A stretch of DNA of 64,000 nucleotides from Escherichia coli (lineage in GTDB: Bacteria > Pseudomonadota > Gammaproteobacteria > Enterobacterales > Enterobacteriaceae): assembly GCF_003991155.1 (NCBI RefSeq), contig NZ_CP031293.1. One strand, written 5' to 3'. Below, one piece after another: positions 9,614 to 29,704 of this stretch. The position numbers were made by a program, and so were the translations under genes. The notes under the pieces are model-generated. The model had not been told where the DNA came from. It saw nothing but the letters and a program-made list of their open reading frames with translations, and did no database searches. Each line of letters starts with the position of its first letter. Position 1 is the first letter of the stretch.

Positions 9614-11182
9614 TTAGCGTGCCGGCTGAGTAGTCGTGGAAGACTGCTCAAAGTGATAGCGACCGGTTTTCAGGCTGCTTGGGCCGAGGCGTGCAAACTT
9701 GAACATTAAGAACAATTCTGCCACCAGGAACAGGGTATACAGGCCGCAAATCAGCACCATTGAGAAGATGAGATCGCCTGCGGTCAGTGACGAGTTCGCC
9801 ACAGCTGTCGGCAGCACTTCACCGATAGCCCACGGTTGGCGGCCATATTCAGCCACAAACCAGCCCGCTTCTACAGCAATCCACGGCAGCGGAATACCGT
9901 ACAGCGCGGCGCGCAGCAGCCATTTTTTCTCGCCAATGCGGTTGCGGATGACACTCCAGAAAGAGAGCGCGATGATTGCCAGCAGCAGGAAGCCACACGC
10001 CACCATGATACGGAACGCGAAGTACAGCGGCGCTACACGCGGAATGGAGTCTTTGGTTGCCTGTTGAATCTGCGCTTCAGTCGCATCAGCCACGTTTGGC
10101 GTATAGCGTTTCAGCAGCAGACCGTAACCGAGGTCTTTCTTCATGCTATTGAACTGGTCACGAACCGCCTGGTCGGTAGAACCAGAACGCAGTTGCTCGA
10201 GCAGAGAGTACGCCTTCATCCCGTTACGAATGCGTTCTTCATGCTGCACCATCAGTTCTTTCAGGCCGATAACTGGAGTATCCACGGAACGCGTTGCAAT
10301 GATGCCCAGCGCGTAAGGGATCTGGATCGCAAATTTGTTCGTCTCCTCTTCCTGATCAGGAATGCCGAACAGAGTAAAGGCAGCAGGCGCAGGTTGCGTT
10401 TCCCACTCGGCTTCAATAGCAGCCAGTTTGGTTTTCTGCACGTCGCCCATTTCGTAACCAGATTCATCACCCAGAACAATAACAGACAGAACGGCAGCCA
10501 TACCGAAGCTGGCAGCGATAGCAAAGGAGCGTTTAGCGAAGGCGAAGTCACGACCTTTCAGCATATACCATGCGCTGATACCGAGGATGAACATCGCGCC
10601 AGTCACATAACCAGACGCTACAGTGTGAACGAATTTCACCTGAGCAACCGGGTTAAGCACCAGCTCGGAGAAGCTCACCATCTCCATACGCATAGTTTCA
10701 AAGTTGAAATCGGACGCGATTGGGTTTTGCATCCAGCCGTTCGCAACCAGAATCCACAGTGCGGACAGGTTTGAACCGAGCGCCACCAGCCAGGTGACAC
10801 ACATATGCTGAACTTTACCCAGACGATCCCAACCGAAGAAGAACAGACCTACAAAGGTGGATTCGAGGAAGAAGGCCATTAGACCTTCGATTGCCAGCGG
10901 CGCACCGAAGATATCCCCTACATAGTGGGAATAGTAAGACCAGTTAGTCCCGAACTGGAACTCCATGGTCAGACCGGTAGCCACACCCAGAGCGAAGTTG
11001 ATACCAAACAACTTGCCCCAGAACTTGGTCATATCTTTATAAATCTGTTTGCCGGAAAGGACGTAGACCGTTTCCATAATGGCCAGCAGGAACGCCATAC
11101 CGAGCGTCAGTGGCACAAAAAGGAAGTGGTACATCGCGGTCAAGGCAAACTGTAAGCGCGACAGTTCGACTATATCTAACAT
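9614..11182 (-). CDS. cydA: Cytochrome bd-I ubiquinol oxidase subunit I
   Basis: Matches CydA. The second of two tandem ATGs was chosen (AAGGAG 5 nt upstream), giving 522 aa. Confidence 0.97.
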
Positions 11183-11519
11183 CATGACTCCTTGCTCATC
11201 GCATGAAGACTCCGAGAGTGAACCCCGTTAGAAAGGGTCACACGCATGCCCCAATACAAAATTATTTGCTCGCCTCTATCGTTGCCATTTCATCAAAAGA
11301 GGAAAAGACAATGATAAAAAAGTTACAAATATGTTAATGAATAAACCAAATTGATCCCGTAATTATATTACGCCGCAAAATCCTTACAATAAACAGGTTT
11401 TTATTGAGCAAATTTGCATTTTTCGACAGTGATCAATTTATAGCGAAATTGTCACGATCTCACCAATTTGATCTACGACAATTTATCGTGTTTTGCAGAT
11501 TTTTTTCAAGAATTAAAAA

Positions 11520-11533
11520 TTGATTTATATCAA
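11520..11533. promoter_or_regulatory. FNR-consensus site in the cydA upstream region
   Basis: TTGATTTATATCAA is a perfect TTGAT-N4-ATCAA palindrome, about 340 nt upstream of the cydA ATG. cydAB is known to be controlled by FNR and ArcA. Confidence 0.55.
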
Positions 11534-11987
11534 AACCAACCAAATATGTTAATTATGTATAAACCATAGATCATTGGTGATTTTATTGTTAATTTATTGT
11601 GAAATATTTATGCAACACAATTATTACAATGAAAAGGTATAGATAAAAAACCAGTGTTTTATTTAACAGAACCGCCTTATCCACTTTTTATAATACCAAT
11701 TGATTAGATTAGCCAATTTGTTGCTATTTTACATAACATATTTTTATCAAAGTTAATTGATTGTTGCCTTTATGAGCACCGGCCGTAAGCCCGTTATGTT
11801 ATTGTTTCATTAGTAATAATCACTTAAATGTATCGATGAAACAGGTATGACTTAGCGGGAGTGATTGTTTCTGAGTGAACAGAAACCACTTTCGCCTGAT
11901 AAATGAAAAATGAGCGATTTTTGCAAGTTAGTTTTTCTATAGCCGAGTACGCTCAGCGCCTCGCTTGATTACAATGAGGTTGCTGCT

Positions 11988-12932
11988 ATGAGTCCTGATA
12001 ATATCGGTTCGGCTGTCAATCGCTTCTCAGGTTGGCCATCTAATGATCCTCTAAAAACAGATAACGAATCAATGACATCACCCGTGACTGTGCAGGTAAT
12101 AAAGATGATTGCCGCCATCCTTGACCCATATCGGATAGTCGTTGGAATCGATACACTTTATACAACGCAGCGCGAAACATTTACCTCAGAGAGTCAACAG
12201 CTCATTGAATCAGCATTGCAAACACTTCATGTGATAAATTTAAATAACCTGGAAACAAATCTCGATGAGGACGGTCACTATCTGGCTTTTGGATATAACG
12301 TTGACACTCCTGACAGAATAACCGTTTCTGCTTATAATGAAAAAAAGCCTGGCTGCTATGGCCAATGTCTTTTAATACAGGATGACGAAACAGACTTATT
12401 TAACCTGATAAAAGTTAAAATTTTTGAAGCCAGGCATAATTATGTCGCTCAATTGATGAGCGATCCGGAATTTATGTTCAAATTTAGTTATAGCGCTCAA
12501 CAAAATAGATTAGAACCTCATCTTCTGGTTCCCACTTATTTCCCTCTAAAAACAAACGAACCGGTTACGCAAGAGGATGTACTGTTACTTTATCGTTTCT
12601 TTAAAATGGATGGTGATTTTAATATATTAACATCAGATGAATACATGAGTATCATGACACCTCTGATGAAGTGTGAGCGCAGCATCCACGACCACAACAG
12701 GTATGTGACGGGCAAAGATACCCTTCTTCTGGACTATCCTCCTTCTGGTAACCAGATATATTTCCATATTTTTCCTGACGAATCAGCAACACTAGTCCTT
12801 TATTTTTCAAACAATGACATTGAATGTTTCGTCTTTGAAAGAGATATTCCGAGCCAGTATCGCTTTTTCAAAATGTTTACCAATCTGGCACTGGTTATTG
12901 ATCAGTTAACCGATGCCAATCAAATACTTTAA
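11988..12932 (+). CDS. Hypothetical protein, 314 aa, no recognised domain (orphan A)
   Basis: ATG preceded by GAGG 8 nt upstream, in an AT-rich, uninterrupted frame. The N-terminus is polar and Ser/Asn/Pro-rich. The exact hexapeptide YRFFKM occurs twice (codons at 12591-12608 and 12858-12875). Confidence 0.7.
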   Translation: MSPDNIGSAVNRFSGWPSNDPLKTDNESMTSPVTVQVIKMIAAILDPYRIVVGIDTLYTTQRETFTSESQQLIESALQTLHVINLNNLETNLDEDGHYLAFGYNVDTPDRITVSAYNEKKPGCYGQCLLIQDDETDLFNLIKVKIFEARHNYVAQLMSDPEFMFKFSYSAQQNRLEPHLLVPTYFPLKTNEPVTQEDVLLLYRFFKMDGDFNILTSDEYMSIMTPLMKCERSIHDHNRYVTGKDTLLLDYPPSGNQIYFHIFPDESATLVLYFSNNDIECFVFERDIPSQYRFFKMFTNLALVIDQLTDANQIL

Positions 12933-13012
12933 TTTTTATATATTCCCTGTGGCAAATATTGCTAAACAATGCCCGGGGATTAATTTTTATTACTCACGGA
13001 AAGATTTAAATA

Positions 13013-13435
13013 ATGATCCCATCTCAAATCTCTTTCAACACCCTTCCTGTCAATGCAACATACGCTTCAGAGACAACAGTTGACACACAAAAATTCTCTG
13101 ACATCCTCTACTCAGCGGGGTGTTCCCTAAAGGATCTGGCTTATCTGAGCAGATGTCTGGCATCAATACATCCGACTATCGCCAAAAACATTTATGAAAC
13201 AGAAAATCTCAGCGATCAAAAATTACTACATATTGATTGCCGTAGTACAAATGAAATCAAGATAAATATCTTTTTTGGTCAACAACGAGAAGGATTAATT
13301 GAAATTAATTCTGACACTGTCATTTTTTCGATATTGTCTTCATTAATTGACTCCGCCATTTCTAAATTTCAACACCAAATCCCCGTTAACGGTTCAGTTA
13401 ATCGTGAACTATTGTATGAGGATTATACTGATTAA
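13013..13435 (+). CDS. Hypothetical small acidic protein, 140 aa, no recognised domain (orphan B)
   Basis: Same strand as orphan A and 80 nt downstream of it, AT-rich. About 17 Asp/Glu versus 10 Lys/Arg by my count. The RBS is weak (ggaaag). Confidence 0.6.
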   Translation: MIPSQISFNTLPVNATYASETTVDTQKFSDILYSAGCSLKDLAYLSRCLASIHPTIAKNIYETENLSDQKLLHIDCRSTNEIKINIFFGQQREGLIEINSDTVIFSILSSLIDSAISKFQHQIPVNGSVNRELLYEDYTD

Positions 13436-13981
13436 ATCCACCCAGTCGCGAAAATGGCCTGCGTTATTGCCAGAGGTAATAAAACCTTTGATTAACGTTA
13501 CTCATACTGGTAGCACCTTCATGTACCTCTCTTTTTTACGAAAAATCAAAAGAGCTAACTAAGGTCATAATTCGCATGAATCATTAACCATTTGTTATTT
13601 TCAACATTATTTTTACATTAAGCAGAGATGAATTGCAGTGAAATTCGACTTAAATTTTATGAAATGCATTTACTCATGGCTAAACCCATATCACTAAAAT
13701 GCAAATTAGAAGTAGATCACAAATACCTCAATACACCAAATCAAGTTAATTTTAAAAATTTAACATTCATGACATTAGTTGACATAACACACTGAATTAA
13801 CATGAGAATTTAACAACATACTTTAAACAATCATTTCCCGAAAGACATTTTGAAAATAGATCAATTGCAACATTACGGTCAGATAAAGACACTCCTGTGA
13901 TATTAAACCTGTGCCGTTATGAACGGCCATAAATACGACGTGTGTAACTTATTTTACTCTCTGTCTTACAAAGGATTACCC

Positions 13982-14431
13982 ATGAAGAAAGCAACACTTG
14001 TGATTGGCGTTATTGGCGCGGACTGCCATGCAGTAGGCAATAAAGTTCTGGACCGCGTTTTTAGCAACCATGGCTTCAGAGTCATTAATCTGGGCGTAAT
14101 GGTCAGCCAGGACGAATATATTGATGCGGCCATTGAAACTGGCGCTGACGCGATTGTCGTCTCCTCTATCTATGGGCATGGCGATATCGACTGTCTGGGC
14201 ATGCGCGAACGCTGCATCGAGCGTGGACTGGGGGACATCCTGCTCTATGTGGGCGGTAACCTGGTGGTCGGAAAACATGACTTCGCTGACGTGGAAACCA
14301 AATTCAAAGAGATGGGATTTGATCGCGTCTTTGCCCCAAGTCATGACTTAGAAGATGTTTGTCAGCTGATGGCACACGATATCAACCAACGTCATGACGT
14401 TGATACTCGTATTCTTGAAGAGGCAATCTGA
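13982..14431 (+). CDS. glmS: Glutamate mutase sigma (B12-binding) subunit
   Basis: ORF trimmed to ATG 13982 (AAGGA 7 nt upstream). [24 protein letters not shown] carries the DxHxxG cobalamin-binding motif. Size and position match clostridial MutS/GlmS. This is not the glucosamine-6-P synthase glmS. Confidence 0.9.
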
Positions 14432-15819
14432 TGCAAATCGTCTCTGTCGATATTGGATCGACGTGGACCAAAGCAGCCCTCTTCGCCCGGGAGGGGGATG
14501 CGTTAACGTTGGTTAACCACGTACTGACCCCAACCACCACCCATCATCTGGCGAAGGGGTTTTTCTCCAGCCTGAACCTGGTGTTAAACGTAGATAATGC
14601 CCTCCCCCTGTTTAACAACGGTGAGGTTGCATTGAAGTATTCCTCCTCTGCCAAAGGTGGGCTGGCGGTTGCCGCAATGGGATTGGTGCCTTCTATCACC
14701 CTGGAAACCGCGAAAGTAACCGCTCACTCTGCGGGGGCTAAAATTGCGCAATATTACGCCTACAAGCTGAACCGCCGTGATATCCAGGCACTGGAAGAAA
14801 CGCAGCCCGATATTCTCTTGTTCACCGGCGGCACCGACGGCGGAGAAGAAAGCTACGGCCTGAATAACGCCCGTGTGCTGGCAGAATCCAAACTCGACTG
14901 CGCCATTATTTATGCCGGAAACCGGGATATTCAGGACGAGGTGCAGGAGATCCTAGGGCATAAAGACCTGACCATCGTCGACAACGTTCTGCCCGATCTT
15001 GACCATCCGAACCCTTTAGCTGCACGCCAGGCTATCTGCGACATATTCCTTAAACGCATCGTTAAAGGGAAAGGGCTGGATGTCGTTGTTGATAAAACAG
15101 GCGAAGAACCAATGCCGACACCGTGGACAGTCTTTGAACTGGTTAAGGCAATCAGTAATGTCGATCACAGCTGGAAAGAGTTCATGCTGATCGACATGGG
15201 TGGCGCAACCACCGATGTCTATTCCGCCTGTGCCAACACGCTCTCGCCCGACACCGTTTTACACGGCGTACCGGAACCCTTCGTGAAACGGACGGTGGAA
15301 GGCGATCTGGGAATGCGCGTCTCGGCAATGGTGGTTGGTGAAAGTGCGAAAGAGTTAGTCAATGTGAATTTTGCTCAGCAACCCGCACAGCTGGACGCTT
15401 TTTATCATTACCTCCGTCATCTAGTCGCTCATCCCGACTACTTACCCGCGAATGCAGAAGAAAAATATTTCGATACCGTCCTGGCCGGACTGTGTGTGGG
15501 TTATGCCACCGAAAGACATGCGGGCACCAAAAAAGAGGTCTGCACCTGCGTCGGCAATGTCGATTTACAGATGGGACGTGACCTGACAACCGTGCGTAAA
15601 GTCGTCGGATCCGGCGGATGGCTCTCGCGTGCCAGTCAGTTCGATATGCATCACTGGTTGAAATACCGCGAGTTAAACGACGACGGTAAACGCATTCTCT
15701 TACCGACCGAATTTGAATATTACCGCGATTCCCGGGGGCTATTACCACTGCTGGCAAACGTCGCCAGAGTCGATCCGCTGGCCGCCGCGCGCACCAGTAT
15801 TCAATGCTTAACCCTATAA
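14431..15819 (+). CDS. glmL: Glutamate mutase-associated MutL/GlmL (putative reactivating chaperone, ASKHA-type ATPase)
   Basis: 462 aa, starting [18 protein letters not shown] (actin-like ATPase phosphate-1 motif). It sits between the S and E subunits exactly as in Clostridium, and its start is coupled to the preceding stop (TGATG). Confidence 0.85.
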   Translation: MQIVSVDIGSTWTKAALFAREGDALTLVNHVLTPTTTHHLAKGFFSSLNLVLNVDNALPLFNNGEVALKYSSSAKGGLAVAAMGLVPSITLETAKVTAHSAGAKIAQYYAYKLNRRDIQALEETQPDILLFTGGTDGGEESYGLNNARVLAESKLDCAIIYAGNRDIQDEVQEILGHKDLTIVDNVLPDLDHPNPLAARQAICDIFLKRIVKGKGLDVVVDKTGEEPMPTPWTVFELVKAISNVDHSWKEFMLIDMGGATTDVYSACANTLSPDTVLHGVPEPFVKRTVEGDLGMRVSAMVVGESAKELVNVNFAQQPAQLDAFYHYLRHLVAHPDYLPANAEEKYFDTVLAGLCVGYATERHAGTKKEVCTCVGNVDLQMGRDLTTVRKVVGSGGWLSRASQFDMHHWLKYRELNDDGKRILLPTEFEYYRDSRGLLPLLANVARVDPLAAARTSIQCLTL

Positions 15820-15837: not shown

Positions 15838-17283
15838 ATGGAACTTCGAAATAAGAAATTAACCCATGACGAATTCATGACCGAGCGGCAACAGGTACTG
15901 AAAACCTGGGAAACCGGCAAGGATGTTGAAAACTTTGAAGATGGCGTTAAATACCAACAAACCATTCCTGAGCATAAACGCTTCTCTCTTGCCCTGCTGA
16001 AAGCAGACAAGGAAGGTAAAACTCTTAGCCAACCGCGCGCAGGCGTGGCGCTGATGGACGAACACATCGAACTACTGAAAACACTACAAGAAGAGTGCGA
16101 TCTGCTGCCGAGCACCATCGATGCATATACCCGTCTGAATCGGTACGAAGAAGCGGCTGTAGGGATTAAAAAATCCATCGAAGCCGGAACCTCTAAACTG
16201 AACGGTTTACCGGTCGTTAACCACGGCGTCGCAGCTTGCCGTCGCCTCACCGAAACTCTGCAAAAACCGCTACAGATCCGCCACGGCACGCCAGATGCGC
16301 GTCTGCTGGCTGAAATCTCGATGGCCAGCGGCTTTACCAGTTATGAAGGCGGCGGCATTTCCTACAATATTCCGTATGCCAAGCGCGTAACGCTGGAAAA
16401 ATCGATCCGCGACTGGCAGTACTGCGACCGTTTAATGGGGATGTATGAAGAACACGGGATCCGCATCAACCGCGAACCGTTTGGCCCACTAACGGGTACC
16501 CTGATCCCGCCGTTTATCTCGCACTCTATCGCGATAATCGAAGGCTTGCTGGCGCTGGAACAGGGTGTGAAATCTATCACCGTTGGTTATGGACAGGTCG
16601 GCAGCCTGACGCAGGATGTTGCGGCGATCCAGTCTCTGCGTGAACTTGCACACGAATATTTTCAGAGCTATGGCTATACCGACTATGAATTAAGTACCGT
16701 GTTTCACCAGTGGATGGGCGGCTTTCCGGAAGACGAATCGAAAGCGTTCGCTATTATCTCCTGGGGCGCAGCCGTCGCGGGGATGTCTGGTGCCACCAAA
16801 GTCATCACCAAAAGTCCGCACGAAGCCTGGGGCATCCCGACTGCCGCTGCCAACATTCAGGGGCTGAAAGCCTCCCGCCAGATGCTCAACATGGTCAACG
16901 AGCAGAAATTCCCGCCGTGCCCTGCGGTTGAACTGGAAATTGAACTGATTAAGAGCGAGGTTCGCGCGGTACTGAATAAAGTGTTCGAACTGGGTAATGG
17001 TGATATTGCGCGCGGTACGGTGCTGGCATTTGAAGCGGGCGTACTGGATGTGCCGTTTGCGCCAGCCGCCTGCAACGCGGGCAAAATTCTTCCGGTCCGT
17101 GACAACACCGGCGCGATACGCGTACTGGAAGCCGGAGCCGTTCCATTGCCAAAAGATATTCTCGACCTCCACCACGATTACGTTGCGGAACGCGCACGCT
17201 TTGAAGGACGCCAACCGACATTCCAGATGGTTGTAGATGACATCAATGCTGTATCCCACAGTAAATTAATAGGAAGACCATAA
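15838..17283 (+). CDS. glmE: Glutamate mutase epsilon (catalytic) subunit
   Basis: 481 aa. It aligns along its length with remembered C. cochlearium GlmE (MEL+NKK...QPRAGVAL+DEHIELL...PSTIDAYTR.NRY...FHQWMGGFP.DESKAF...SFQMV+DDI). Confidence 0.93.
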   Translation: MELRNKKLTHDEFMTERQQVLKTWETGKDVENFEDGVKYQQTIPEHKRFSLALLKADKEGKTLSQPRAGVALMDEHIELLKTLQEECDLLPSTIDAYTRLNRYEEAAVGIKKSIEAGTSKLNGLPVVNHGVAACRRLTETLQKPLQIRHGTPDARLLAEISMASGFTSYEGGGISYNIPYAKRVTLEKSIRDWQYCDRLMGMYEEHGIRINREPFGPLTGTLIPPFISHSIAIIEGLLALEQGVKSITVGYGQVGSLTQDVAAIQSLRELAHEYFQSYGYTDYELSTVFHQWMGGFPEDESKAFAIISWGAAVAGMSGATKVITKSPHEAWGIPTAAANIQGLKASRQMLNMVNEQKFPPCPAVELEIELIKSEVRAVLNKVFELGNGDIARGTVLAFEAGVLDVPFAPAACNAGKILPVRDNTGAIRVLEAGAVPLPKDILDLHHDYVAERARFEGRQPTFQMVVDDINAVSHSKLIGRP

Positions 17284-18524
17284 TGAAAATAAAACAGGCT
17301 CTGTTCACCGCTGGCTACTCCTCATTCTATTTCGATGACCAGCAGGCGATAAAAAACGGAGCGGGTCATGACGGCTTTTTTTATACCGGGGAGCCGGTAA
17401 CACAGGGGTTTAACGCCGTTCGTCAGGCCGGGGAGTGCGTATCAGTACAGTTGATTCTGGAAAACGGCTCGGTCGCCGTAGGTGACTGTGCTGCCGTACA
17501 GTATTCCGGGGCAGGTGGTCGCGATCCACTGTTCCTCGCTGAGCACTTTATTCCGTTCCTCAACGACCATATCAAGCCATTACTGGTAGGCCGCGATGTG
17601 GATGCTTTCCTGCCGAATGCCCGTTTCTTCGACAAATTGCGTATTGACGGCAACTTGCTGCATACCGCCGTGCGCTACGGATTATCACAGGCGCTGCTTG
17701 ATGCTACCGCGCTGGCAACCGGCCGTCTGAAAACTGAAGTAGTTTGCGATGAATGGCAGTTGCCACGCGTGGCGGAATCCATTCCATTATTTGGTCAGAG
17801 CGGGGACGATCGATATATCGCCGTCGATAAGATGATCCTTAAGGGCATCGACGTGCTGCCCCATGCACTGATTAATAACGTCGAAGAGAAACTGGGCTTT
17901 AAAGGTGAAAAACTGCGCGAATATGTCCGCTGGCTGTCGGATCGTATTCTGAGCAAGCGCACCAGCGCACGCTACCACCCTACCCTGCACATCGATGTAT
18001 ACGGCACTATCGGTCTGATCTTCGATATGGATCCGCTTCGCTGTGCGCAATACATCGCCAGCCTGGAAAAAGAAGCGCAAGGCCTGCCGCTCTACATTGA
18101 AGGGCCGGTCGATGCCGGTAACAAGCCCGATCAAATTCGCCTGCTGACCGCGATTACCAAAGAGCTGACGCGCCTCGGTTCCGGCGTGAAAATTGTGGCC
18201 GATGAATGGTGTAACACCTACCAGGATATTGTTGATTTCACTGATGCCGCCAGTTGTCACATGGTGCAAATCAAAACCCCGGATCTGGGCAGTATTCACA
18301 ACATCGTCGATGCGGTTCTTTACTGCAACAGCCACAGCATGGAAGCGTACCAGGGCGGCACCTGCAATGAAACTGATGTCAGTGCCCGCACCTGTGTCCA
18401 CGTCGCCCTTGCCGCTCGCCCTATGCGTATGCTGGTAAAGCCAGGGATGGGCTTTGACGAAGGCCTCGATATCGTCTTCAACGAAATGAATCGTACTATC
18501 GCGCTGTTGCAGGCTAAGGATTAA
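17283..18524 (+). CDS. mal: 3-Methylaspartate ammonia-lyase (methylaspartase)
   Basis: 413 aa. MKIKQALFTAGYSSFYFDDQQAIKNGAGHDGF matches the clostridial MAL N-terminus; enolase-superfamily fold. TAATG start/stop coupling with glmE. Confidence 0.92.
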   Translation: MKIKQALFTAGYSSFYFDDQQAIKNGAGHDGFFYTGEPVTQGFNAVRQAGECVSVQLILENGSVAVGDCAAVQYSGAGGRDPLFLAEHFIPFLNDHIKPLLVGRDVDAFLPNARFFDKLRIDGNLLHTAVRYGLSQALLDATALATGRLKTEVVCDEWQLPRVAESIPLFGQSGDDRYIAVDKMILKGIDVLPHALINNVEEKLGFKGEKLREYVRWLSDRILSKRTSARYHPTLHIDVYGTIGLIFDMDPLRCAQYIASLEKEAQGLPLYIEGPVDAGNKPDQIRLLTAITKELTRLGSGVKIVADEWCNTYQDIVDFTDAASCHMVQIKTPDLGSIHNIVDAVLYCNSHSMEAYQGGTCNETDVSARTCVHVALAARPMRMLVKPGMGFDEGLDIVFNEMNRTIALLQAKD

Positions 18525-18527
18525 CAA

Positions 18528-19898
18528 ATGGCTCGTTCTTTTAAAGTCTTATCGCCAACGGCAATCCTCGGGTATGGATTCCCGGAAGAGAGCTTCCGCA
18601 AAGCGATGGCAGAATCGCCCGATCTGATCGCCGTTGATGCAGGCTCTTCCGATCCTGGCCCCCACTACCTCGGAGCGGGCAAACCGTTTACCGATCGCGC
18701 AGGGGTCAAGCGCGATCTGCGCTATATGATCACCGCAGGCGTGCAAAATAATATACCGGTGGTGATCGGAACAGCTGGCGGTTCTGGTGCCGCACCACAC
18801 CTGGAGTGGTGCCGAGAAATAATTCATGAGATTGCCCGGGAAGAGCGACTCGTGTTCTCGATGGCGCTGATCCCGGCAGACGTTGACAAAGCCATCGTCC
18901 ACCAGGCGCTGGATAACGGCAAAATCACGGCGCTGGATTTTGTCCCGCCGTTAACCCACGACGCGATTGACGAAAGTACGTATATCGTTGCGCAAATGGG
19001 CATCGAACCCTTCCAGCGGGCGCTGAAAGAAGGCGCGCAAGTGGTGCTGGGCGGGCGCGCTTACGACCCGGCCTGCTTTGCTGCGCTCCCGATCATGCAA
19101 GGCTTTGATGAAGGTCTGGCGCTGCATTGTGGGAAAATCCTTGAATGCGCGGCAATCGCCGCAACGCCCGGCTCAGGCTCTGACTGTGCGATGGGCATCA
19201 TTGATGACAACGGCTTTACGCTGAAGACATTTAATCCGAAGCGTAAATTTACCGAAACGTCAGCGGCTGCACACACACTGTATGAGAAATCCGATCCCTA
19301 CTTCCTGCCTGGACCTGGCGGCGTGTTGAACCTGAAAGGCTGCACATTTAAAGCGGTCAATGACGGCGAAGTGTACGTCAGCGGTTCTAAGCATGAAGAA
19401 ACGCCGTATGCCCTGAAACTGGAAGGTGCGCGACGGGTGGGCTTCCGCTGTCTGACCATCGCAGGAACGCGCGACCCGATCATGATCGCCGGGATCGATA
19501 AAATCATCGATGAAGTCAAAACCAGCGTTTCACGTAACCTGTCGCTCGACGATGACAGCATTCGCATCAATTTCCACCTGTACGGCAAAAACGGGGTGAT
19601 GGGCGACCATGAACCGATGCAAACTGCCGGGCATGAGCTGGGGATTGTCCTTGATGTAGTTGCACCGACCCAGGAAATTGCCAATAGCGTTTGCTCGCTG
19701 GTGCGCTCTACCATGCTGCACTACGGCTATGAAAACCGCATCGCTACCGCAGGCAATCTGGCGTTCCCGTTCTCCCCTTCTGATATCCAGGGCGGGCCGG
19801 TATACGAATTTTCCATATATCACCTGATTGAAGCCAACGACGCTCTGCGTTTTGATTTCCATATTGAACAGGTGACGCCAGAAGGAGTTCAGGCATGA
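18528..19898 (+). CDS. Conserved protein of unknown function, tentatively DUF1446/AtuA-like
   Basis: 456-aa ORF starting 3 nt after the mal stop. I recognise no catalytic motif. The family assignment is tentative and rests on pairing with the downstream DUF4387-like ORF. Confidence 0.8.
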   Translation: MARSFKVLSPTAILGYGFPEESFRKAMAESPDLIAVDAGSSDPGPHYLGAGKPFTDRAGVKRDLRYMITAGVQNNIPVVIGTAGGSGAAPHLEWCREIIHEIAREERLVFSMALIPADVDKAIVHQALDNGKITALDFVPPLTHDAIDESTYIVAQMGIEPFQRALKEGAQVVLGGRAYDPACFAALPIMQGFDEGLALHCGKILECAAIAATPGSGSDCAMGIIDDNGFTLKTFNPKRKFTETSAAAHTLYEKSDPYFLPGPGGVLNLKGCTFKAVNDGEVYVSGSKHEETPYALKLEGARRVGFRCLTIAGTRDPIMIAGIDKIIDEVKTSVSRNLSLDDDSIRINFHLYGKNGVMGDHEPMQTAGHELGIVLDVVAPTQEIANSVCSLVRSTMLHYGYENRIATAGNLAFPFSPSDIQGGPVYEFSIYHLIEANDALRFDFHIEQVTPEGVQA

Positions 19899-20212
19899 AA
19901 CAGTCAATTGTCTCACTGGCGCAAGTCATTCGTTCGAAAAATGCCGGACCTTACGAACTGGTTTTAGATATTTTATTTAAAACGAAAGAAAACTATGAGC
20001 GAGTTAAATCATCAGGGCAATTAACCCCAGAACTGATTGCGCGCTTATATCATGTTGAACCTGACTTTATTCACCGTATTGTCTGGTTTGATCCTTCTAA
20101 CGCAGTAAAAATCGTCATGCCACGAGATATTATCTCCGGGAATGTAGGTGACAATGATGTCTATGGTGCACAGCAACATGCACCTTTATTAAATATGAGT
20201 TTCGATTTGTAA
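19895..20212 (+). CDS. Conserved small protein, tentatively DUF4387 (AtuA C-terminal-like)
   Basis: 105 aa with an ATGA overlap onto the preceding ORF. The motifs IRSKNAGPYEL and DVYGAQQHAPLL resemble what I recall of DUF4387. Confidence 0.75.
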   Translation: MKQSIVSLAQVIRSKNAGPYELVLDILFKTKENYERVKSSGQLTPELIARLYHVEPDFIHRIVWFDPSNAVKIVMPRDIISGNVGDNDVYGAQQHAPLLNMSFDL

Positions 20213-20372
20213 AAATCCGAATACTTTTAGCCAACTGACATCCCGTCACTTATTGCAGTTCAACACTTCAGCTATTTGTAAGGTTGTAATAGCAGGTAGA
20301 TGCCTGAATCTCTATTCAGGCATCTACTTCTCCTGATTCTGATTTATCGCCGTGCACCTGATGGAGGAAAAA

Positions 20373-21653
20373 ATGAAGAAAATAAGTTTAACCACGATGA
20401 TTCTTTTGGCGCTGGTACTTGGAATGATTATCGGCGTAGTGCTCAATAACACTGCTTCACCGGAAACCGCAAAACTCTATGCGCAAGAAATATCGATATT
20501 CACGACGATTTTCTTACGACTGATAAAAATGATTATCGCTCCGTTAGTGGTCTCTACCCTGGTGGTAGGTATAGCTAAAATGGGAGATGCCAAAGCCCTT
20601 GGTCGTATTTTTTCTAAAACACTCTTTTTATTTATTTGCGCCTCATTGCTGTCAATTGCCTTAGGCTTGATAACGGTAAATTTCTTCATGCCAGGCACAG
20701 GAATTAATTTTGTTGCACACGGTGCCGAAACCACCGGAGTGGTCGCGTCAGAACCCTTTACACTAAAAGTATTTATTTCGCATGCTTTCCCCACCAGCAT
20801 TGTCGATGCCATGGCACACAATGAAATTTTGCAAATCGTGGTGTTCTCAATTTTCCTCGGCTGTAGCCTGACGGCGATTGGTGAGAAAGGCAGCGCCATC
20901 GTTCACGCCTTAGATTCGCTGGCACATGCCATGTTAAAGCTCACTGGCTACGTCATGCTCTTCGCTCCCCTGACCGTATTCGCCGCTATTTCAGCATTGA
21001 TTGCTGAACGAGGACTGGCAGTTATGGTGAGCGCCGGGATCTTTATGGGTGAATTTTATTTCACCATGTTGTTACTTTGGGTGCTGCTTATCGGTCTGGC
21101 CATCGTTTATGTCGGCCCCTGCATCAGACGCCTGACCCGTGCCCTTTCGGAACCCGCCCTGCTGGCATTTACCACATCCAGTTCTGAAGCGGCTTTTCCG
21201 GGAACGCTTGAAAAACTGGAGCAATTTGGCGTTTCCCCCAAAATTGCCAGCTTTGTCTTACCCATTGGCTACTCATTTAATCTCGTTGGATCAATGGCCT
21301 ACTGCTCCTTCGCCACAGTTTTCATCGCCCAGGCCTGCAATATCCATTTATCCATCGGTGAGCAAATCACCATGCTGTTGATCCTGATGTTGACCTCGAA
21401 AGGAATGGCTGGCGTACCACGCGCCTCAATGGTGGTTATCGCCGCCACGCTCAACCAGTTCAATATTCCGGAAGCGGGGCTGATCTTGCTGATGGGCGTT
21501 GATCCGTTCCTTGATATGGGGCGTTCCGCGACAAACGTCATGAGCAACGCAATGGGCGCTGCGATGGTGAGTCGGTGGGAAGGCGAACATTTCGGCGAGG
21601 GCTGTCGGGGTAAAGCATTAAAACCCAATGAATCGAACGTTGCTCTGCCCTGA
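20373..21653 (+). CDS. Dicarboxylate/amino acid:cation symporter (DAACS family, DctA/GltP-like)
   Basis: Start moved to ATG 20373 (GGAGG 5 nt upstream). 426 aa, polytopic, with TSSSEAAFP and GYSFNLVGS motifs typical of DctA/GltP carriers. Confidence 0.88.
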   Translation: MKKISLTTMILLALVLGMIIGVVLNNTASPETAKLYAQEISIFTTIFLRLIKMIIAPLVVSTLVVGIAKMGDAKALGRIFSKTLFLFICASLLSIALGLITVNFFMPGTGINFVAHGAETTGVVASEPFTLKVFISHAFPTSIVDAMAHNEILQIVVFSIFLGCSLTAIGEKGSAIVHALDSLAHAMLKLTGYVMLFAPLTVFAAISALIAERGLAVMVSAGIFMGEFYFTMLLLWVLLIGLAIVYVGPCIRRLTRALSEPALLAFTTSSSEAAFPGTLEKLEQFGVSPKIASFVLPIGYSFNLVGSMAYCSFATVFIAQACNIHLSIGEQITMLLILMLTSKGMAGVPRASMVVIAATLNQFNIPEAGLILLMGVDPFLDMGRSATNVMSNAMGAAMVSRWEGEHFGEGCRGKALKPNESNVALP

Positions 21654-21760: not shown

Positions 21761-23413
21761 ATGTCCAAACCATTTATCTGGCAAGAACCGTTTCTACAAA
21801 ATAAAGACGGTACAGAATATACATTAATTAGCGATCAACATATTACAGTAACGGAATTAGACGGCGAAGAAGTGATAAAAATCGCTCCTGAAGCATTAAC
21901 GCTGCTTGCCCGGCAGGCATTTTATGAAGCCTCTTTTTTCTTACGTTCCGCTCATTTGCAACAGGTCGCCAGCATTCTTAACGATCCGCACGCCAGTAGT
22001 AATGATAAATACGTTGCGTTGCAGTTATTACGTAATGCTGAAGTCTCAGCAAAAGGGGTATTACCCAACTGTCAGGATACCGGCACCGCAACTATTGTTG
22101 CCAGTAAAGGGCAACAGATATGGACCGGAGGTAACGACGCTGAAGCCTTAAGCAAAGGCATTTACACCACTTTTCAGGAAAATAATCTGCGCTTTTCACA
22201 AAATGCGCCACTGGATATGTATACCGAAGTCAATACGCAAACCAATCTACCGGCGCAGATTGATATCAGCGCCGTCGCTGGTGATGAGTACCATTTTCTC
22301 TGTATTAATAAAGGGGGCGGCTCTGCCAATAAAGCCGCGCTTTATCAGGAAACCAAATCCCTATTGCAACCAGAAAAACTGACCGCATTTTTAATCGAAA
22401 AAATGAAATCGCTGGGCACCGCTGCCTGCCCGCCTTACCACATCGCCTTTGTCGTCGGAGGGCTTTCAGCCGATCAAACCTTAAAAGTTGCCAAGCTGGC
22501 CTCAACGAAATATTACGACAATTTGCCCACCAGCGGAAACGAGCAAGGACAAGCATTCCGTGATATTGAGCTGGAAAAAGTATTGCTCGAGGCCAGTCAG
22601 CAATTTGGTATTGGTGCGCAATTTGGGGGTAAATATTTCGCTCATGATATTCGCGTCATTCGTCTGCCGCGTCACGGTGGCTCTTGCCCGATAGCTATGG
22701 CGCTCTCCTGTTCTGCGGATCGCAATATCAAAGCAAAAATTAACAAGCACGGTATCTGGCTGGAAAAACTCGAACACAATCCGGGGCAATATATTCCAGC
22801 CTCACTGCGGGAAGAAAATCACGCGCAACATGTACAGCTGGATCTAAACCGTCCGTTGCGTGACGTGATGCAGGATCTCGCCAGATTACCGGTAGGCACC
22901 CGCGTGTCGTTAAGTGGTCCCATCGTAGTGGCGCGCGATATCGCCCACGCCAAAATAAAAGCGCGGCTGGATAGCGGCGAACCGATGCCGGATTACCTGA
23001 AGCATCATATTGTCTATTACGCTGGCCCGGCGAAAACACCGGAGAACATGGCCTGCGGTTCACTGGGTCCAACCACGGGCGGTCGAATGGACGGTTATGT
23101 CGATACCTTCCAGGCGGCTGGCGGCAGTCTGGTGATGTTATCGAAAGGTAACCGCAGCCAGCAGGTCACCGATGCCTGTCACAAACATGGCGGCTTCAAT
23201 CTGGGGAGTATTGGCGGTGCAGCTGCGTTACTGGCGCAAGAATATGTCAAAAGTCTGCGTTGCCTGGAATACCCGGAGCTGGGTATGGAAGCGGTGTGGA
23301 TGATGGAAGTGGAAAATTTACCCGCATTCATCCTGGTAGATGATAAAGGCAATAATTTCTTTAGTCAGTTTGAGCAGCAACACCGCTGCGCCAGTTGCCC
23401 TGCGGGACATTAA
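21761..23413 (+). CDS. fumD: Class I (Fe-S) fumarate hydratase paralogue, probable mesaconase
   Basis: 550 aa, FumA/FumB-like ([19 protein letters not shown]). Its position in a methylaspartate operon matches the FumD mesaconase/fumarase described for E. coli O157:H7. Confidence 0.88.
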
Positions 23414-23422: not shown

Positions 23423-24025
23423 ATGGAAGCGCGAATTTCAACTGAACGGCATGTGCAGCGCCAGCAGAAATTGAAGGAACAGGTCGATACGCGCGTCGCG
23501 GCGGCGATAGAGAAAAAAGGGATTTTGATTGTTTTCACCGGCAACGGCAAAGGGAAATCCACTGCCGCGTTTGGTACTGTGACGCGCGCGGTGGGTCATG
23601 GCAAAACGGTGGGGGTTGCGCAGTACATCAAGGGGCAATGGGACAACGGCGAATACAACCTTCTCCAACCGCTGGGGGTTGAGTTTCATATTATGGGAAC
23701 CGGTTTTACCTGGGAGACACAGAACCGGCAAGCGGATATCGACGCGGCGAAAGAGGTCTGGTCGGAAAGCAAACGGATGCTGGCTGACAAGCGTTACGAC
23801 TTAGTGGTGCTTGATGAGCTGACCTATATGCTGGCTTACCATTATCTGGACACCGAAGAAGTGATCGCTTCTCTGCAAAACCGCCCGGCACAACAAAGTG
23901 TCATTGTCACCGGACGCGGTTGCCACAGTCAGATATTAAAAATGGCGGATACGGTCAGCGAAATCCGCCCCGTCAAACATGCTTTTGATAACGGCATTCA
24001 GGCGCAGCCGGGTATCGACTGGTAA
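23423..24025 (+). CDS. ATP:cob(I)alamin adenosyltransferase, CobA/BtuR type
   Basis: 200 aa with P-loop GNGKGKSTAAFG and DELTY, the same size as BtuR. It would supply adenosylcobalamin for glutamate mutase. Confidence 0.88.
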   Translation: MEARISTERHVQRQQKLKEQVDTRVAAAIEKKGILIVFTGNGKGKSTAAFGTVTRAVGHGKTVGVAQYIKGQWDNGEYNLLQPLGVEFHIMGTGFTWETQNRQADIDAAKEVWSESKRMLADKRYDLVVLDELTYMLAYHYLDTEEVIASLQNRPAQQSVIVTGRGCHSQILKMADTVSEIRPVKHAFDNGIQAQPGIDW

Positions 24026-24028: not shown

Positions 24029-24060
24029 CTGCGCCTGGCATCCCGCCAGGCGCAGGTTTT
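24029..24060. terminator. Hairpin terminator between the convergent adenosyltransferase and LysR genes
   Basis: ctgcgcctggc-atccc-gccaggcgcag followed by gtttt, immediately after the 24025 stop. Confidence 0.7.
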
Positions 24061-24964
24061 ACATCTCCTGCGGTACGACCGATTTCGCCAGCAACCATTC
24101 ACGAAATTGCTGCAAGTGCGGTGAGTCAGACTTCTCTTCCTGCCACGTCATAATAAAACGATTACCGGTACGAATAGGCACATCACAGGGAATCACCATA
24201 TCGCCACTATCCAAATCATGTTGAATAGCGAACCGTGGTAACAGCGCCACGCCGAGATTAGAGCGCACGGCGGCAATCAGCATTGAAAGCAAATCGAAAC
24301 GTGGTCCGTTATTGACCAGCGGACTGCTAACGCCAGATAAAGCAAACCACTCTTCCCAGCCAGTAATACGGGTGCTTTGATGCAGAAGTGGTAACTCAGT
24401 AAGCAGTTCTGCCACTGACAGTTTTTGATCGGACATTGCAAGCAAACTGCCGCTGCATACCGGCAAAATCTCCTCATCAAAGAGATATTCTACTTCCGCC
24501 CAGGGCGCGCAAAAATTTTCGCGCATAATGACAGCATCGTACTCCCGATTAAGAAAATCGCCGTTATTAGCTAAAGAATGAATATTAACAATAATATCGG
24601 GATGTAACTTTGTGAATTCATGTAAATTTGGGATTAACCAGTGGGTACTAAAAGTAGGATTAACGGCAAGTTCAATAACCTGAACCGTAGGCTGCCAGGT
24701 CATAATGGTATTGGTATCGCGTTCCAGCTTATTTAATGTTTCTTTTACTATCCCCAGGTAATACTTCCCTGCATCATTAAGAAAAATGCGTTTTTTAGAG
24801 TGTGAAAATAACGGAGTACGTAAAAATTCCTCCAGCGCACTTACTTGTCTGAATACTGCACTTTGGGTTAACGCTAACTCCTCTGCCGCTCTGGTATAAC
24901 TTTCATGACGTGCGACGACCTCAAAAGTCACCAGCAGTTCCGTTTTAGGTATTTTTCCTCGCAT
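24059..24964 (-). CDS. LysR-family transcriptional regulator
   Basis: 301 aa with an N-terminal wHTH (ESYTRAAEELALTQSAVFRQVSALEEFL) and a LysR substrate-binding domain. Confidence 0.9.
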   Translation of the reverse strand: MRGKIPKTELLVTFEVVARHESYTRAAEELALTQSAVFRQVSALEEFLRTPLFSHSKKRIFLNDAGKYYLGIVKETLNKLERDTNTIMTWQPTVQVIELAVNPTFSTHWLIPNLHEFTKLHPDIIVNIHSLANNGDFLNREYDAVIMRENFCAPWAEVEYLFDEEILPVCSGSLLAMSDQKLSVAELLTELPLLHQSTRITGWEEWFALSGVSSPLVNNGPRFDLLSMLIAAVRSNLGVALLPRFAIQHDLDSGDMVIPCDVPIRTGNRFIMTWQEEKSDSPHLQQFREWLLAKSVVPQEM

Positions 24965-25234: not shown

Positions 25235-26905
25235 TTATTTTTGATTTATAGCATATCCTTCTAAGAATTTTTGCGAAGCTGCAATATCTGGGGTAAAGAC
25301 CCGATCCTGGTCGACAAACGGCACGACTTTTCTGTATTCGGTAAACATTGCTTTGGTGGATTTCCCTAATGCCAGTTGTGGATCGGCCTGCAACCGTAAA
25401 TCGAGAGCCTGTGCGGAATGCATCAGTTCAATGCCATAAATCACGTTCAGATTATCGACAACCTGTTTCAATCTTCTGGCCGCGTGGTCATTATTGGCAC
25501 CGGTATCTTCTATACCTCCGGCAACCGGTTGAATATCGAAAGAAACCGGGTTAGCGAGATCGACATTTTCCGCATGCAGCGCAACAAACGGGATATGTAA
25601 TGAACCGAAGCCATGACCTTTATTACCTGCTGCCGACAGGAAGCGTGACAAACCGGTAAAGTGATCATCTTCAAGATGCAGCGAGCGGCGCATACTGTTA
25701 TGTGAAACATGCACTAACGCCACGGTCAGACGCTGGGTGGCAAGCGCAACCGGTAACGATTCGAAATTCGCCGTCGGGAAGATCCCACCGCTGATTGCCC
25801 CATCTTTAACAAAATATTGCGCGACCTGACTGGAGTCCTGATACGCTTTGTCTGCATTCAGCACGGTTGCCGGGTTGTCATCGGAACTGTTGATCTGCAC
25901 GGTAATGGTATCTTCAGCATCGCGCAACGCGCGCATTGCCTCAGAAATGGTATACACCGTCGTTCTGAACGATAACGGATCCTGCAATGCACGTTTGTCA
26001 TGCTTATGCCATAAATAAGAACCACTTAACGCATCGCGAATCTCTTTAGCGGAATCAGCCAACTGCGGGAAAGGACGCACGGCGATCGACTGCGGCAGTA
26101 CCGGCGCGACATTGCCATTCAACGCTTCCAGACTCATAGCGAAAACCACCGGGCTGACATTCAGCAACTGACGTGCCGAACGAACAGCTTCGATAGCGTA
26201 GGCTGTCCCGACGCTGTTGTTCGATAAAATCGCCAGCATATCTTTACCCTGCGGTACCAGTGGCTTAAGTCCCACTTTCGCCAGCGCGTCACCACCGCTC
26301 ATTTGCACGCCATTTACTCGGGCTTTCCATTCCCCCATCATCACCAGACCAACGTGCGAAGCGAGCATAATATCCGCTGCGCCGATACTTCCCCGCACCG
26401 GAATTAACGGTGTAACGCCGCGATTAATAAATTCGGCATACAACTCGGCAATATAAGGCTGTGCGCCGGTTTGCCCATGCAGCATGGTATTTAAACGTAA
26501 TACCATTGAAAGGCGTGCCAGATAATCCGGTAACATCGGACCAACGCCCGCAGAATGGGCGCGCAGCGCGGCAGCATTAAATTTTTTCGACGCGTCAATC
26601 ACCTCAGGCGTTAAATTTCCTTTGGCATCAAATATGGGCTGATCTTTATTTAGCCCCACGCCCACGGTTAAGCCATAAACAGGCGTACCTGAATGCGCGG
26701 CAGTCATCACCAGATCATAACTTTTTTCCATGCGCTCCATGGCGTTCGACGCGATTTTGACGCCGTTATCACCTAATGCAATTGACCAGGCCTGGTCAAT
26801 GGAAAGATGTTCGCCATCCAGCGTAATGGTTGATTTCGCCATCGCAATGGAGCAAACGCTCCAGAGCACAACGGTGACAGTGACTCTTCGTATCAATCCT
26901 TTCAT
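25235..26905 (-). CDS. Secreted (periplasmic) histidine/phenylalanine ammonia-lyase-fold protein lacking the MIO Ala-Ser-Gly triad
   Basis: 556 aa with AAGGA 6 nt upstream. Sec signal MKGLIRRVTVTVVLWSVCSIAMA|KS. It aligns to HutH (YGLTVGVG, LRAHSAGVG, QDPLSFR, DDNP), but GSVGASGDLAPLAH is replaced by GSIGAADIMLASH. Confidence 0.85.
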   Translation of the reverse strand: MKGLIRRVTVTVVLWSVCSIAMAKSTITLDGEHLSIDQAWSIALGDNGVKIASNAMERMEKSYDLVMTAAHSGTPVYGLTVGVGLNKDQPIFDAKGNLTPEVIDASKKFNAAALRAHSAGVGPMLPDYLARLSMVLRLNTMLHGQTGAQPYIAELYAEFINRGVTPLIPVRGSIGAADIMLASHVGLVMMGEWKARVNGVQMSGGDALAKVGLKPLVPQGKDMLAILSNNSVGTAYAIEAVRSARQLLNVSPVVFAMSLEALNGNVAPVLPQSIAVRPFPQLADSAKEIRDALSGSYLWHKHDKRALQDPLSFRTTVYTISEAMRALRDAEDTITVQINSSDDNPATVLNADKAYQDSSQVAQYFVKDGAISGGIFPTANFESLPVALATQRLTVALVHVSHNSMRRSLHLEDDHFTGLSRFLSAAGNKGHGFGSLHIPFVALHAENVDLANPVSFDIQPVAGGIEDTGANNDHAARRLKQVVDNLNVIYGIELMHSAQALDLRLQADPQLALGKSTKAMFTEYRKVVPFVDQDRVFTPDIAASQKFLEGYAINQK

Positions 26906-26955
26906 TGTGTTTCCTTATCATGATGAGTTTAACAACGGGTTACTGCGACAACGTT

Positions 26956-27906
26956 TTAATTTGTTCTATCTGTTTTCCCCCGCCGGACAATACTGGTCAC
27001 CAGGCGAGCGGCAACTTTCGCAGTTAAATTATCGCGGTCCAGGTCCGGGTTAAGTTCGGCAATATCCGCAGCAATCAACTTCTCGCTACCGGCGATTAAA
27101 TTCACAATGGCTTCAGTAATATTTAACGGCACGCCTAACGGTGATGGAGCAGAAACACCGGGCGCCTGATAACCTGGTAAAACATCGAGACAAATCGTTA
27201 AATAAATGGCGTCACAAGCCTGAATATCTGCCGAGAGCGCATTAGCGATCTCATGCAAACCACGTTCAAATTGCAGAGATTCGTCCAGCCAATAACGCAC
27301 ACCGAGACAATCAGCGCGATCAAATAACGCCTGAGTATTGGCAAAACGACTTATTCCCAGCACGCGATAATGAAACGGTTTGCCATGCTGCGCGTTCCAC
27401 TCTTGCATCTGACGAAACGGCGTACCTGAATTGGCTTGTTCCGCCATCCGTAAATCAAAATGCGCGTCAAGGTTCACAATCAGTAACCGCTGAATATCCG
27501 GACGCGACTGCATAATCCCCTGAAATGTTCCCCACGCCACTTCATGACCGCCCCCCAGAACCACCGGTAAACTGCCGCGCGCAATGGCTGTAGATACGTT
27601 AGCCGCCAGACGATTTTGTGCGGATTCCAGCGCGTGGTCCTCGCTTTGTACATCGCCCATATCGAAAATAGCGCCTTCACAGAGCACTGGCATATTTCCC
27701 AACATGCTGCGCAACGCGCCCGGTCCGCCTGCTGCACCCGCTCGCCCATCATTACGTTGCACTCCGTCATCAACGGCAAAACCAATCAGCGTACAACCGC
27801 CGTGGCTTTGTTCACTAAACGGTTGCACATGCTGATGCCAGCGAGTGCTGATGCCGGTTTCCTGCGAGTCAACACGCCCACTCCACGGCAAAAATGTTTG
27901 CTTCAT
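26956..27906 (-). CDS. hutG: Formimidoylglutamase (arginase fold)
   Basis: Start trimmed to ATG 27906 (AAGGAG upstream; TAATG overlap with the hutI stop). 316 aa with Mn-site motifs GGGHEVAWG, DAHFD and CLDVL. Confidence 0.88.
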   Translation of the reverse strand: MKQTFLPWSGRVDSQETGISTRWHQHVQPFSEQSHGGCTLIGFAVDDGVQRNDGRAGAAGGPGALRSMLGNMPVLCEGAIFDMGDVQSEDHALESAQNRLAANVSTAIARGSLPVVLGGGHEVAWGTFQGIMQSRPDIQRLLIVNLDAHFDLRMAEQANSGTPFRQMQEWNAQHGKPFHYRVLGISRFANTQALFDRADCLGVRYWLDESLQFERGLHEIANALSADIQACDAIYLTICLDVLPGYQAPGVSAPSPLGVPLNITEAIVNLIAGSEKLIAADIAELNPDLDRDNLTAKVAARLVTSIVRRGKTDRTN

Positions 27907-29117: not shown

Positions 29118-29704
29118 AAGGATTTTTCCCCTCGTAGATAATAAAGCCACCAGCCCGCCAGCTCACCGACGGAGACTTTCTTCCGTGGTACGAAACGCCA
29201 GGGCCTGCCATCAGGTGCAACCAGCCATAACAACATATTTGCCGCGACAAACACCCTTTTCTTGCCGCTTATCCACTCCCCTTCACACAGCGTGAACAGG
29301 CCCGCTTGCGCAAGTGACGGAGGACGCCAGTCAACGGCACTTTGCACCCGCAACATCCCCGCATCGCCTTCCCGCGCCATAACATTCAGATCGCGAACCC
29401 CGCCGCCCAGCAGCTGGCAATCAGGCATAGCTTCTCCAGGGAAAATTAAGGCGGGATCGTGACGTTGCAGGTTGATGATCGAATCGGCAAACGTTAGCTT
29501 CACCCCTTCCCCGTCGAGAATCGCGAGGCCACGAACCACGCCAGGCCACGCTGAAAAAGAGCCATCCTGACTGACATTCGCCATACTGATGCGCAACAAC
29601 CAGTTTTCATCATCGGGCCAGGCAAGCAGCTGTCGGGTAAACCCCCCGCCGTTGCGCCACGGTTGCAGCGGCTTATCCATTGCAGAAATCAGCATCGGTT
29701 CCAT
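29114..29704 (-). CDS. hutD: HutD-family protein
   Basis: 196 aa. The WRNGGGFTRQL motif and bicupin size are typical of HutD. It starts 1 nt after the permease stop. Confidence 0.8.
   Translation of the reverse strand: MEPMLISAMDKPLQPWRNGGGFTRQLLAWPDDENWLLRISMANVSQDGSFSAWPGVVRGLAILDGEGVKLTFADSIINLQRHDPALIFPGEAMPDCQLLGGGVRDLNVMAREGDAGMLRVQSAVDWRPPSLAQAGLFTLCEGEWISGKKRVFVAANMLLWLVAPDGRPWRFVPRKKVSVGELAGWWLYYLRGEKSL

Follow-up and report, generated by a model that had tools for sequence, protein, structure and literature searches.

Two overlapping genes of Escherichia coli, located in a window of 64,000 nucleotides (the whole stretch of DNA that was analyzed; contig NZ_CP031293.1, assembly GCF_003991155.1), are identified with a probability of roughly 0.88 as cmlA and cmlB, which encode the large subunit (456 amino acids (aa), AtuA/DUF1446 family; 18528..19898, + strand, ATG start) and the small subunit (105 aa, DUF4387; 19895..20212, + strand, ATG start) of citramalate lyase. 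Together, CmlA and CmlB would form an (S)-citramalate lyase that depends on neither CoA nor an acyl carrier and that catalyzes the last step of the methylaspartate route. An earlier note, made from the sequence alone, had described the pair as an uncharacterized family embedded in the methylaspartate operon and had proposed that it supplies a missing citramalate-cleaving step. The embedding in the operon is confirmed, but the function is no longer unassigned, as orthologues are named citramalate lyase CmlA and CmlB in the PDB; the proposal is supported by those orthologues, which were crystallized with citramalate and with pyruvate, by a preprint that used cmlAB and by genomic linkage. The finding is already known, having been solved and named by the depositors of PDB entries 9ERQ and 9EVF in 2025, and is a rediscovery here. 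Its practical use is for annotation: in Pfam, NCBIfam and RefSeq the genes are still listed without a known function, the public names of the E. coli genes being 'AtuA family protein' and 'DUF4387 domain-containing protein', and some public records label homologues as methylaspartase.

When the PDB was searched by sequence, each protein had a single strong match, in both cases to chains of 9ERQ and 9EVF (released October 2025). CmlA matches chain A (456 aa; 'Citramalate lyase, subunit A (cmlA)') over its full length with an E-value of 2.8e-292 and approximately 92% identity, and CmlB matches chain B (105 aa), named 'Citramalate lyase, subunit B (cmlB)' by the depositors, with an E-value of 5.2e-57 and identity at 88 of 104 residues, counted by hand (approximately 85%). 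The title of 9ERQ describes an 'AMPPNP - citramalate complex' and that of 9EVF an 'ADP - pyruvate complex'. The AlphaFold2 model of CmlA from the window superimposes on 9evf_A with a template modeling (TM) score of 0.93, and the fold has no other solved relative in the PDB. The pair in the window shares with the crystallized CmlAB both the two-subunit architecture (456 + 105 aa) and the fold. The cmlAB genes of Raoultella planticola, a gift of I. Berg's laboratory, have been used to cleave citramalate to pyruvate and acetate in vivo. Growth of an evolved E. coli acetyl-CoA auxotroph on mesaconate required that it carry cmlAB, and label from mesaconate is recovered in leucine derived from acetyl-CoA (bioRxiv 10.64898/2026.01.16.699985, January 2026).

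Both open reading frames (ORFs) are present as the earlier note described them, joined by an ATGA start/stop overlap that is read directly from the sequence (19895..19898, + strand). The start of cmlA lies 3 nt past the stop of mal, the gene of methylaspartate ammonia-lyase, and has its own AAGGA at 18516-18520; the Shine-Dalgarno sequence of cmlB, AAGGAG (19882..19887, + strand), lies within the 3' end of cmlA, with a 7-nt spacer to the ATG. Translational coupling by the overlap and the internal Shine-Dalgarno sequence would favor balanced output of CmlA and CmlB. The tentative assignment of the two proteins to AtuA (DUF1446) and DUF4387 was correct, both Pfam families being matched above their gathering cut-offs: CmlA belongs to AtuA (PF07287, formerly DUF1446; 70.6 bits versus a cut-off of 22.8, E=1.5e-19, residues 63-394), and CmlB to DUF4387 (PF14330; 134.3 bits versus a cut-off of 27, E=2.6e-39, profile positions 2-97 of 98), while NCBIfam has a model for neither. 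The two motifs on which that assignment had been based, RSKNAGPYEL (residues 13-22) and DVYGAQQHAPLL (residues 88-99), are the two most conserved blocks of CmlB. An origin of the pair as chance ORFs is excluded, as homologues number in the thousands in sequence searches.

Linkage of the pair to the methylaspartate genes was surveyed by scanning one genome per GTDB species with patterns built from 11 aligned orthologues. At least 582 loci were obtained, of which the 80 best (numbered with the prefix L) were surveyed; they represent Enterobacterales, Aeromonas, Rhodocyclales, Riflebacteria, spirochaetes, many Bacillota, Lentisphaerota, Holophaga, Aminicenantes-like metagenome-assembled genomes (MAGs) and others. 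A cmlB homologue is located 3' of cmlA on the same strand in all 77 loci in which the contig continues, the other three contigs ending just past cmlA; the junction is a 4-nt overlap in 44 of the 77 and an overlap of any length in 50. Of the 75 loci with sufficient upstream sequence, 65 have mal immediately 5' of cmlA in the same orientation, and the order glmS-glmL-glmE-mal-cmlA-cmlB is kept throughout, so the neighborhood survey that the earlier note had suggested finds homologues tightly linked to mal/glm genes across phyla. With respect to the crystallized CmlAB, the loci of Citrobacter, Klebsiella and Salmonella (approximately 91% identical to the window protein) share the mal-cmlA-cmlB-transporter-fumD context. 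The G+C content falls sharply between the coupled genes, from 55.3% in cmlA (61% at third codon positions) to 38.7% in cmlB (33% at third codon positions); the drop in cmlB recurs in all Enterobacterales and Aeromonas loci (L001-L023) and not in other phyla. In a Peptococcaceae MAG (L081:7302-16132), the gene order is TRAP DctM - cmlA - cmlB - sigma-54 activator - two-subunit class I fumarase, and neither glutamate mutase nor methylaspartase is present; judging from gene content, this looks like a stand-alone module for mesaconate/citramalate utilization. A Terrisporobacter MAG contig that has neither mal nor glm genes carries a TnpB/Cas12f1-like gene (TNB domain) directly 5' of cmlAB (L074:762-2159).

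The enterobacterial methylaspartate cluster was described by Kronen and Berg in 2015, with FumD shown to be a mesaconase; genes for glutamate mutase and methylaspartase occur in approximately 90% of O157:H7 strains, and the fate of (S)-citramalate in enterobacteria that possess methylaspartate genes was explicitly left open (PMC4682846). Cells of E. coli O157:H7 that were induced for the citrate-lyase, isocitrate-lyase or methylcitrate pathway had no citramalate lyase activity (PMC4682846). Because the 2015 work found no citramalate-cleaving activity, the gap seen by the earlier note is real; the idea that citrate lyase alone could fill it fails, as the citrate lyase of E. coli O157:H7 does not cleave citramalate (PMC4682846). 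The operon was also rightly said to contain no known citramalate lyase: homologues of CitC, CitD, CitE, CitF, CitX and CitG, sought by tblastn of the E. coli proteins, are found neither in the window nor in any of 81 loci (the 80 surveyed plus the reference locus, L001), no Pfam or NCBIfam match of CitDEF type is found on CmlA or CmlB, and the citrate lyase operon of this E. coli strain is more than 100 kb from cmlAB. The absence of Cit genes fits the view that the clostridial citramalate lyase of CitDEF type was replaced by a non-orthologous enzyme. The predicted pathway would convert glutamate to methylaspartate (GlmSE, with GlmL), methylaspartate to mesaconate (Mal), mesaconate to (S)-citramalate (FumD), and (S)-citramalate to pyruvate and acetate (CmlAB).

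The operon consists of nine genes in the order glmS-glmL-glmE-mal-cmlA-cmlB-carrier-fumD-cobO, all intact and tightly coupled, and its flanking members are as previously stated: mal upstream of the pair, and the carrier and the mesaconase FumD downstream (Pfam, NCBIfam, RefSeq). On the + strand, methylaspartate (glutamate) mutase subunit S is encoded by glmS (13982..14431; NCBIfam equivalog NF002612, 253 bits), for which the mechanical ORF starts at 13919, the NF002612 match begins at ORF residue 22 and the RefSeq coding sequence of an identical genome begins at 13982; the accessory/reactivating protein of the mutase by glmL (14431..15819; NCBIfam TIGR01319, NF040745); subunit E of the mutase by glmE (15838..17283; NCBIfam TIGR01503, 865 bits); and methylaspartate ammonia-lyase by mal (17283..18524; NCBIfam TIGR01502, 544 bits). 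Downstream of cmlB on the same strand are a GltP/DctA-like dicarboxylate/amino-acid:cation symporter (20352..21653, with a RefSeq start at 20373; Pfam SDF, 343 bits, RefSeq annotation, and NCBIfam matches that are under their equivalog cut-offs), the class I fumarase/mesaconase FumD, which makes (S)-citramalate (21761..23413; NCBIfam NF011921, 1286 bits; PMC4682846), and, as the last gene of the operon, the cob(I)alamin adenosyltransferase CobO, which supplies the coenzyme of the mutase (23423..24025; RefSeq annotation of an identical genome). A terminator-like hairpin of 11 pairs, 9 of them GC, may close the operon (24029..24055, + strand; consensus scan only), and a convergent gene for a LysR-type protein is a candidate regulator of the operon (24059..24964, - strand; RefSeq annotation); the homologous ORF in L010 carries the Pfam domains LysR_substrate and HTH_1. 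According to Pfam, NCBIfam and RefSeq annotation, the operon encodes no CoA ligase or CoA transferase, and a search for RNA elements, including a cobalamin riboswitch, found none in the operon at Rfam gathering thresholds.

The window is chromosomal E. coli DNA; its positions 18000-20700 are 100% identical to several complete E. coli genomes, and the locus is present in 1125 of 5426 complete E. coli genomes (approximately one fifth). Upstream, an AT-rich stretch (32-38% G+C, 11000-13918) abuts glmS and contains two orphan ORFs (11988-12932, 314 aa; 13013-13435, 140 aa), which belong to no Pfam or NCBIfam family; in strain 2016C-3878, which is otherwise identical, there is an IS1 at the end of the second. 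One possibility is that this stretch is a leader of the island that was acquired horizontally and is silenced. On the other side, a histidine utilization cluster adjoins the operon (approximately 25235-35000, - strand; HAL-family lyase, hutG, hutI, hutD, permease, hutU), followed by rtcB and then sucDCBA-sdh-gltA. Because histidine breakdown yields glutamate, the island could encode conversion of histidine to glutamate and onward to pyruvate and acetate; CmlAB would close the pathway and, with the adjacent hut genes, make complete a route from histidine/glutamate to pyruvate, acetate and ammonia. Elsewhere in the window, a seven-tRNA gene array (1386-2086, - strand) and a CpoB/ybgF thermometer element beside tol-pal (3013-3151, - strand) are ordinary for this region of E. 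coli.

Four points weigh against the identification of the pair as citramalate lyase. In the library of papers that was searched, no primary account of the kinetics or stoichiometry of CmlAB turned up, only the preprint of 2026, so the name of the enzyme rests on the PDB titles and ligands given by the depositors and on one preprint that used gifted genes. The catalytic assignment stems from the Raoultella orthologue and not from the E. coli proteins themselves. Extracts of E. coli ATCC 700728 from non-inducing conditions had no citramalate lyase activity, and no condition was found under which the cluster is expressed (PMC4682846). Some homologues with 56-58% identity are found in unrelated or Atu-like contexts, for example in L056. 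The residual uncertainty is in the role of the enzyme in E. coli and in the chemical role of the nucleotide.

The alternative that survives best concerns the role in the host rather than the molecular identity: the genes are cmlAB, but the island is cryptic or silenced in E. coli. The failure of E. coli ATCC 700728 to express the cluster, to benefit from glutamate during growth or to show citramalate lyase activity (PMC4682846) is what would be expected of such an island, as are the stretch of 34-38% G+C with two orphan ORFs that precedes the operon, the IS1 located there in the sister strain, and the restriction of the locus to 1125 of 5426 genomes. The integrity and tight coupling of all nine genes in the window speak for a functional operon, and the 1121 E. 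coli genome records among the carriers that hold the locus nearly full length at 95-100% conservation argue for selection; the adjoining hut cluster is intact and would feed glutamate into the pathway. Silencing of the island in E. coli is possible, with the odds leaning against it.

A second alternative is that the pair is a generic enzyme of AtuA type that acts on some other substrate, for example a branched 3-hydroxy acid in the form of its CoA ester, as has been proposed for AtuA of Pseudomonas; its place in the methylaspartate operon would then have nothing to do with citramalate cleavage. The family is large, with 2383 clusters at 50% identity in a representative-level search, 443 of them at E<=1e-30, and the AtuA family of Pfam is the one to which CmlA itself belongs. 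In L056:8025-11353, a CmlA-like gene (56% identity) is divergent beside an acyl-CoA carboxyltransferase (Atu/Liu-like) rather than mal; it is one of a few homologues with 56-58% identity that neighbor either such a carboxyltransferase or unrelated genes, and that, to go by their neighborhoods, roughly mark the limit of the orthologous group of citramalate lyase. Natural fusions in which AtuA is followed by DUF4387 are found as several proteins of approximately 610-735 aa, and in P0275 (1096 aa) both are fused to a family III CoA-transferase domain, which counts in favor of this alternative and hints that some members of the family may act together with CoA transfer. For the E. coli pair, however, 92% and 85% identity to the enzyme that was crystallized with citramalate and with pyruvate, retention of the mal-cmlA-cmlB order across phyla and an operon that contains no CoA ligase or CoA transferase make a different substrate very improbable. 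The model of another fusion, P0268, has a predicted local distance difference test score (pLDDT) of 91 and a predicted TM score (pTM) of 0.89, with only the linker disordered, and matches 9evf_A and 9evf_B with target-normalized TM scores of 0.91 and 0.90. The occurrence of the two polypeptides together in each crystal entry, as distinct chains, the natural fusions and the fusion model indicate that CmlA and CmlB function as a single enzyme.

Least probable of all is that the two proteins serve as an accessory to methylaspartate ammonia-lyase or glutamate mutase, or as a second form of either, despite the name '3-methylaspartate ammonia-lyase' that public records P0002, P0060 and P0072 give to homologues (an annotation made 'for unknown reason' according to Kronen and Berg, PMC4682846). 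Neither protein resembles Mal (enolase superfamily) or any mutase component in sequence or fold, the MAAL_N and MAAL_C domains are found in the upstream gene (17283-18524) only and not in the pair, L081 and L061 have cmlAB but neither mal nor glm, and the ligands in the PDB are citramalate and pyruvate. Citramalate lyase is not among the source names listed for CmlA homologues.

In the citramalate lyase CmlAB, residues that are conserved across the family sample cluster in glycine-rich loops and at charged positions. Those conserved family-wide are D37, G39, S40, D42, G44, P45, G84, G85, G87, R177, D180, K203, E206, C207, H249, Y252, E253, K297, E299, G409, N410 and H432 of CmlA and R13, S14, K15, N16, G18, K72, R77, D88 and Q93 of CmlB. 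The glycine-rich loops of CmlA are invariant among the 11 orthologues (residues 37-52; T82 and G84-A88; P214-G217; A408-A412 and P414-D419), and their core residues are at least 95% conserved across the wider AtuA family. Several conserved loops of CmlA are low-confidence parts of the model of the subunit alone, as would be expected of loops that are ordered by a ligand or a partner. Binding of a nucleotide is known from the PDB titles of the orthologue; contact of the glycine-rich loops with the nucleotide is putative. Cleavage of citramalate to pyruvate and free acetate requires a carbanion to be stabilized beside a carboxylate, a problem that citrate lyase avoids by means of a thioester. 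Because the crystals held an ATP analogue with the substrate and ADP with the product, ATP is proposed to take a chemical part in the reaction: in the most economical scheme, it would transiently convert the C4 carboxylate of citramalate to an acyl phosphate, which would make the carbanion/enolate on the acetate side accessible, like the thioester in citrate lyase; retro-aldol cleavage would yield pyruvate and acetyl phosphate; and the phosphate would either return to ADP on the enzyme, so that acetate is the net product and ATP serves as a cofactor, or be reclaimed through acetate kinase. Structure comparison found similarity to carboxylate-phosphorylating folds at noise level only, and the odds between this role of the nucleotide, suggested by the bound ligands, and a purely structural or allosteric role are roughly even.

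The most promising new lead is a P-loop gene that accompanies cmlAB outside Enterobacterales. It encodes a conserved soluble protein of approximately 315 aa with the Walker A motif GAEGSGKSTLI (L042:11692-12639, + strand; L061:4048-5001; L026:11694-12647; and 38 further loci). Of 58 non-enterobacterial cmlAB loci, 41 contain the gene, and in 28 it is directly 3' of cmlB. The protein belongs to no Pfam family, has no NCBIfam match above noise and has no solved relative. In L061, a unit of cmlA, cmlB and the P-loop gene is flanked by rph/rdgB, without mal or glm. The P-loop gene is absent from the E. coli window, where the orphan ORF at 11988-12932 was considered as a counterpart and rejected for lack of similarity. 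A speculative and somewhat doubtful proposal is that the P-loop protein is a third component of a nucleotide-dependent citramalate lyase, for example an activating or nucleotide-recycling ATPase, that was lost or replaced in enterobacteria.

Among known systems, the classical citramalate lyase of Clostridium tetanomorphum (CitDEF-type, EC 4.1.3.22) and citrate lyase consist of proteins unrelated to CmlAB. CitDEF acts via an acetyl-thioester on its acyl-carrier subunit, and the accessory genes CitC/X/G are required. CmlAB, unlike CitDEF, lacks a carrier protein, no Cit homologues are found in its vicinity, and its orthologue binds adenine nucleotides. As a C-C lyase that binds a nucleotide, dispenses with both carrier and CoA and has a fold without counterpart elsewhere in the PDB, CmlAB is biochemically unusual. 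The reaction is nevertheless of the same kind, conversion of a tertiary hydroxy acid to a 2-oxo acid and acetate, and the C. tetanomorphum citramalate lyase and CmlAB occupy the same final position in the methylaspartate pathway (PMC4682846). The citramalyl-CoA route, which consists of succinyl-CoA:citramalate CoA-transferase and citramalyl-CoA lyase, is another way to convert citramalate to pyruvate and a C2 unit (PMC4682846); the window operon encodes neither the CoA-transferase nor the CitE/HpcH-like lyase that this route requires, and most enterobacteria have no citramalyl-CoA lyase (PMC4682846). ATP-citrate lyase offers a mechanistic analogy only, to the CmlAB orthologue that binds AMPPNP with the substrate and ADP with the product. 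In ATP-citrate lyase and other acyl-phosphate-forming enzymes, ATP activates a carboxylate before C-C cleavage. AtuA, from the acyclic terpene utilization pathway of Pseudomonas and Thauera, has been tentatively assigned as the acetate-releasing lyase of 3-hydroxy-3-isohexenylglutaryl-CoA, and the Thauera protein has 615 aa (PMC4847356). Like CmlA, it belongs to the AtuA family of Pfam and would release acetate from a 3-hydroxy-3-alkyl acid, but AtuA proteins are typically AtuA+DUF4387 fusions of approximately 600 aa that would act on a CoA ester, whereas CmlAB consists of two separate polypeptides and has a free dicarboxylate as its substrate, CmlA being a distant member of the family (70.6 bits). 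To our knowledge, the activity of AtuA has never been demonstrated with purified protein. The AtuA/DUF4387 family was thus not wholly without a proposed function beforehand, and by analogy CmlAB makes the proposal that AtuA is a lyase more credible, providing a functional handle on a large family, its fused forms included.

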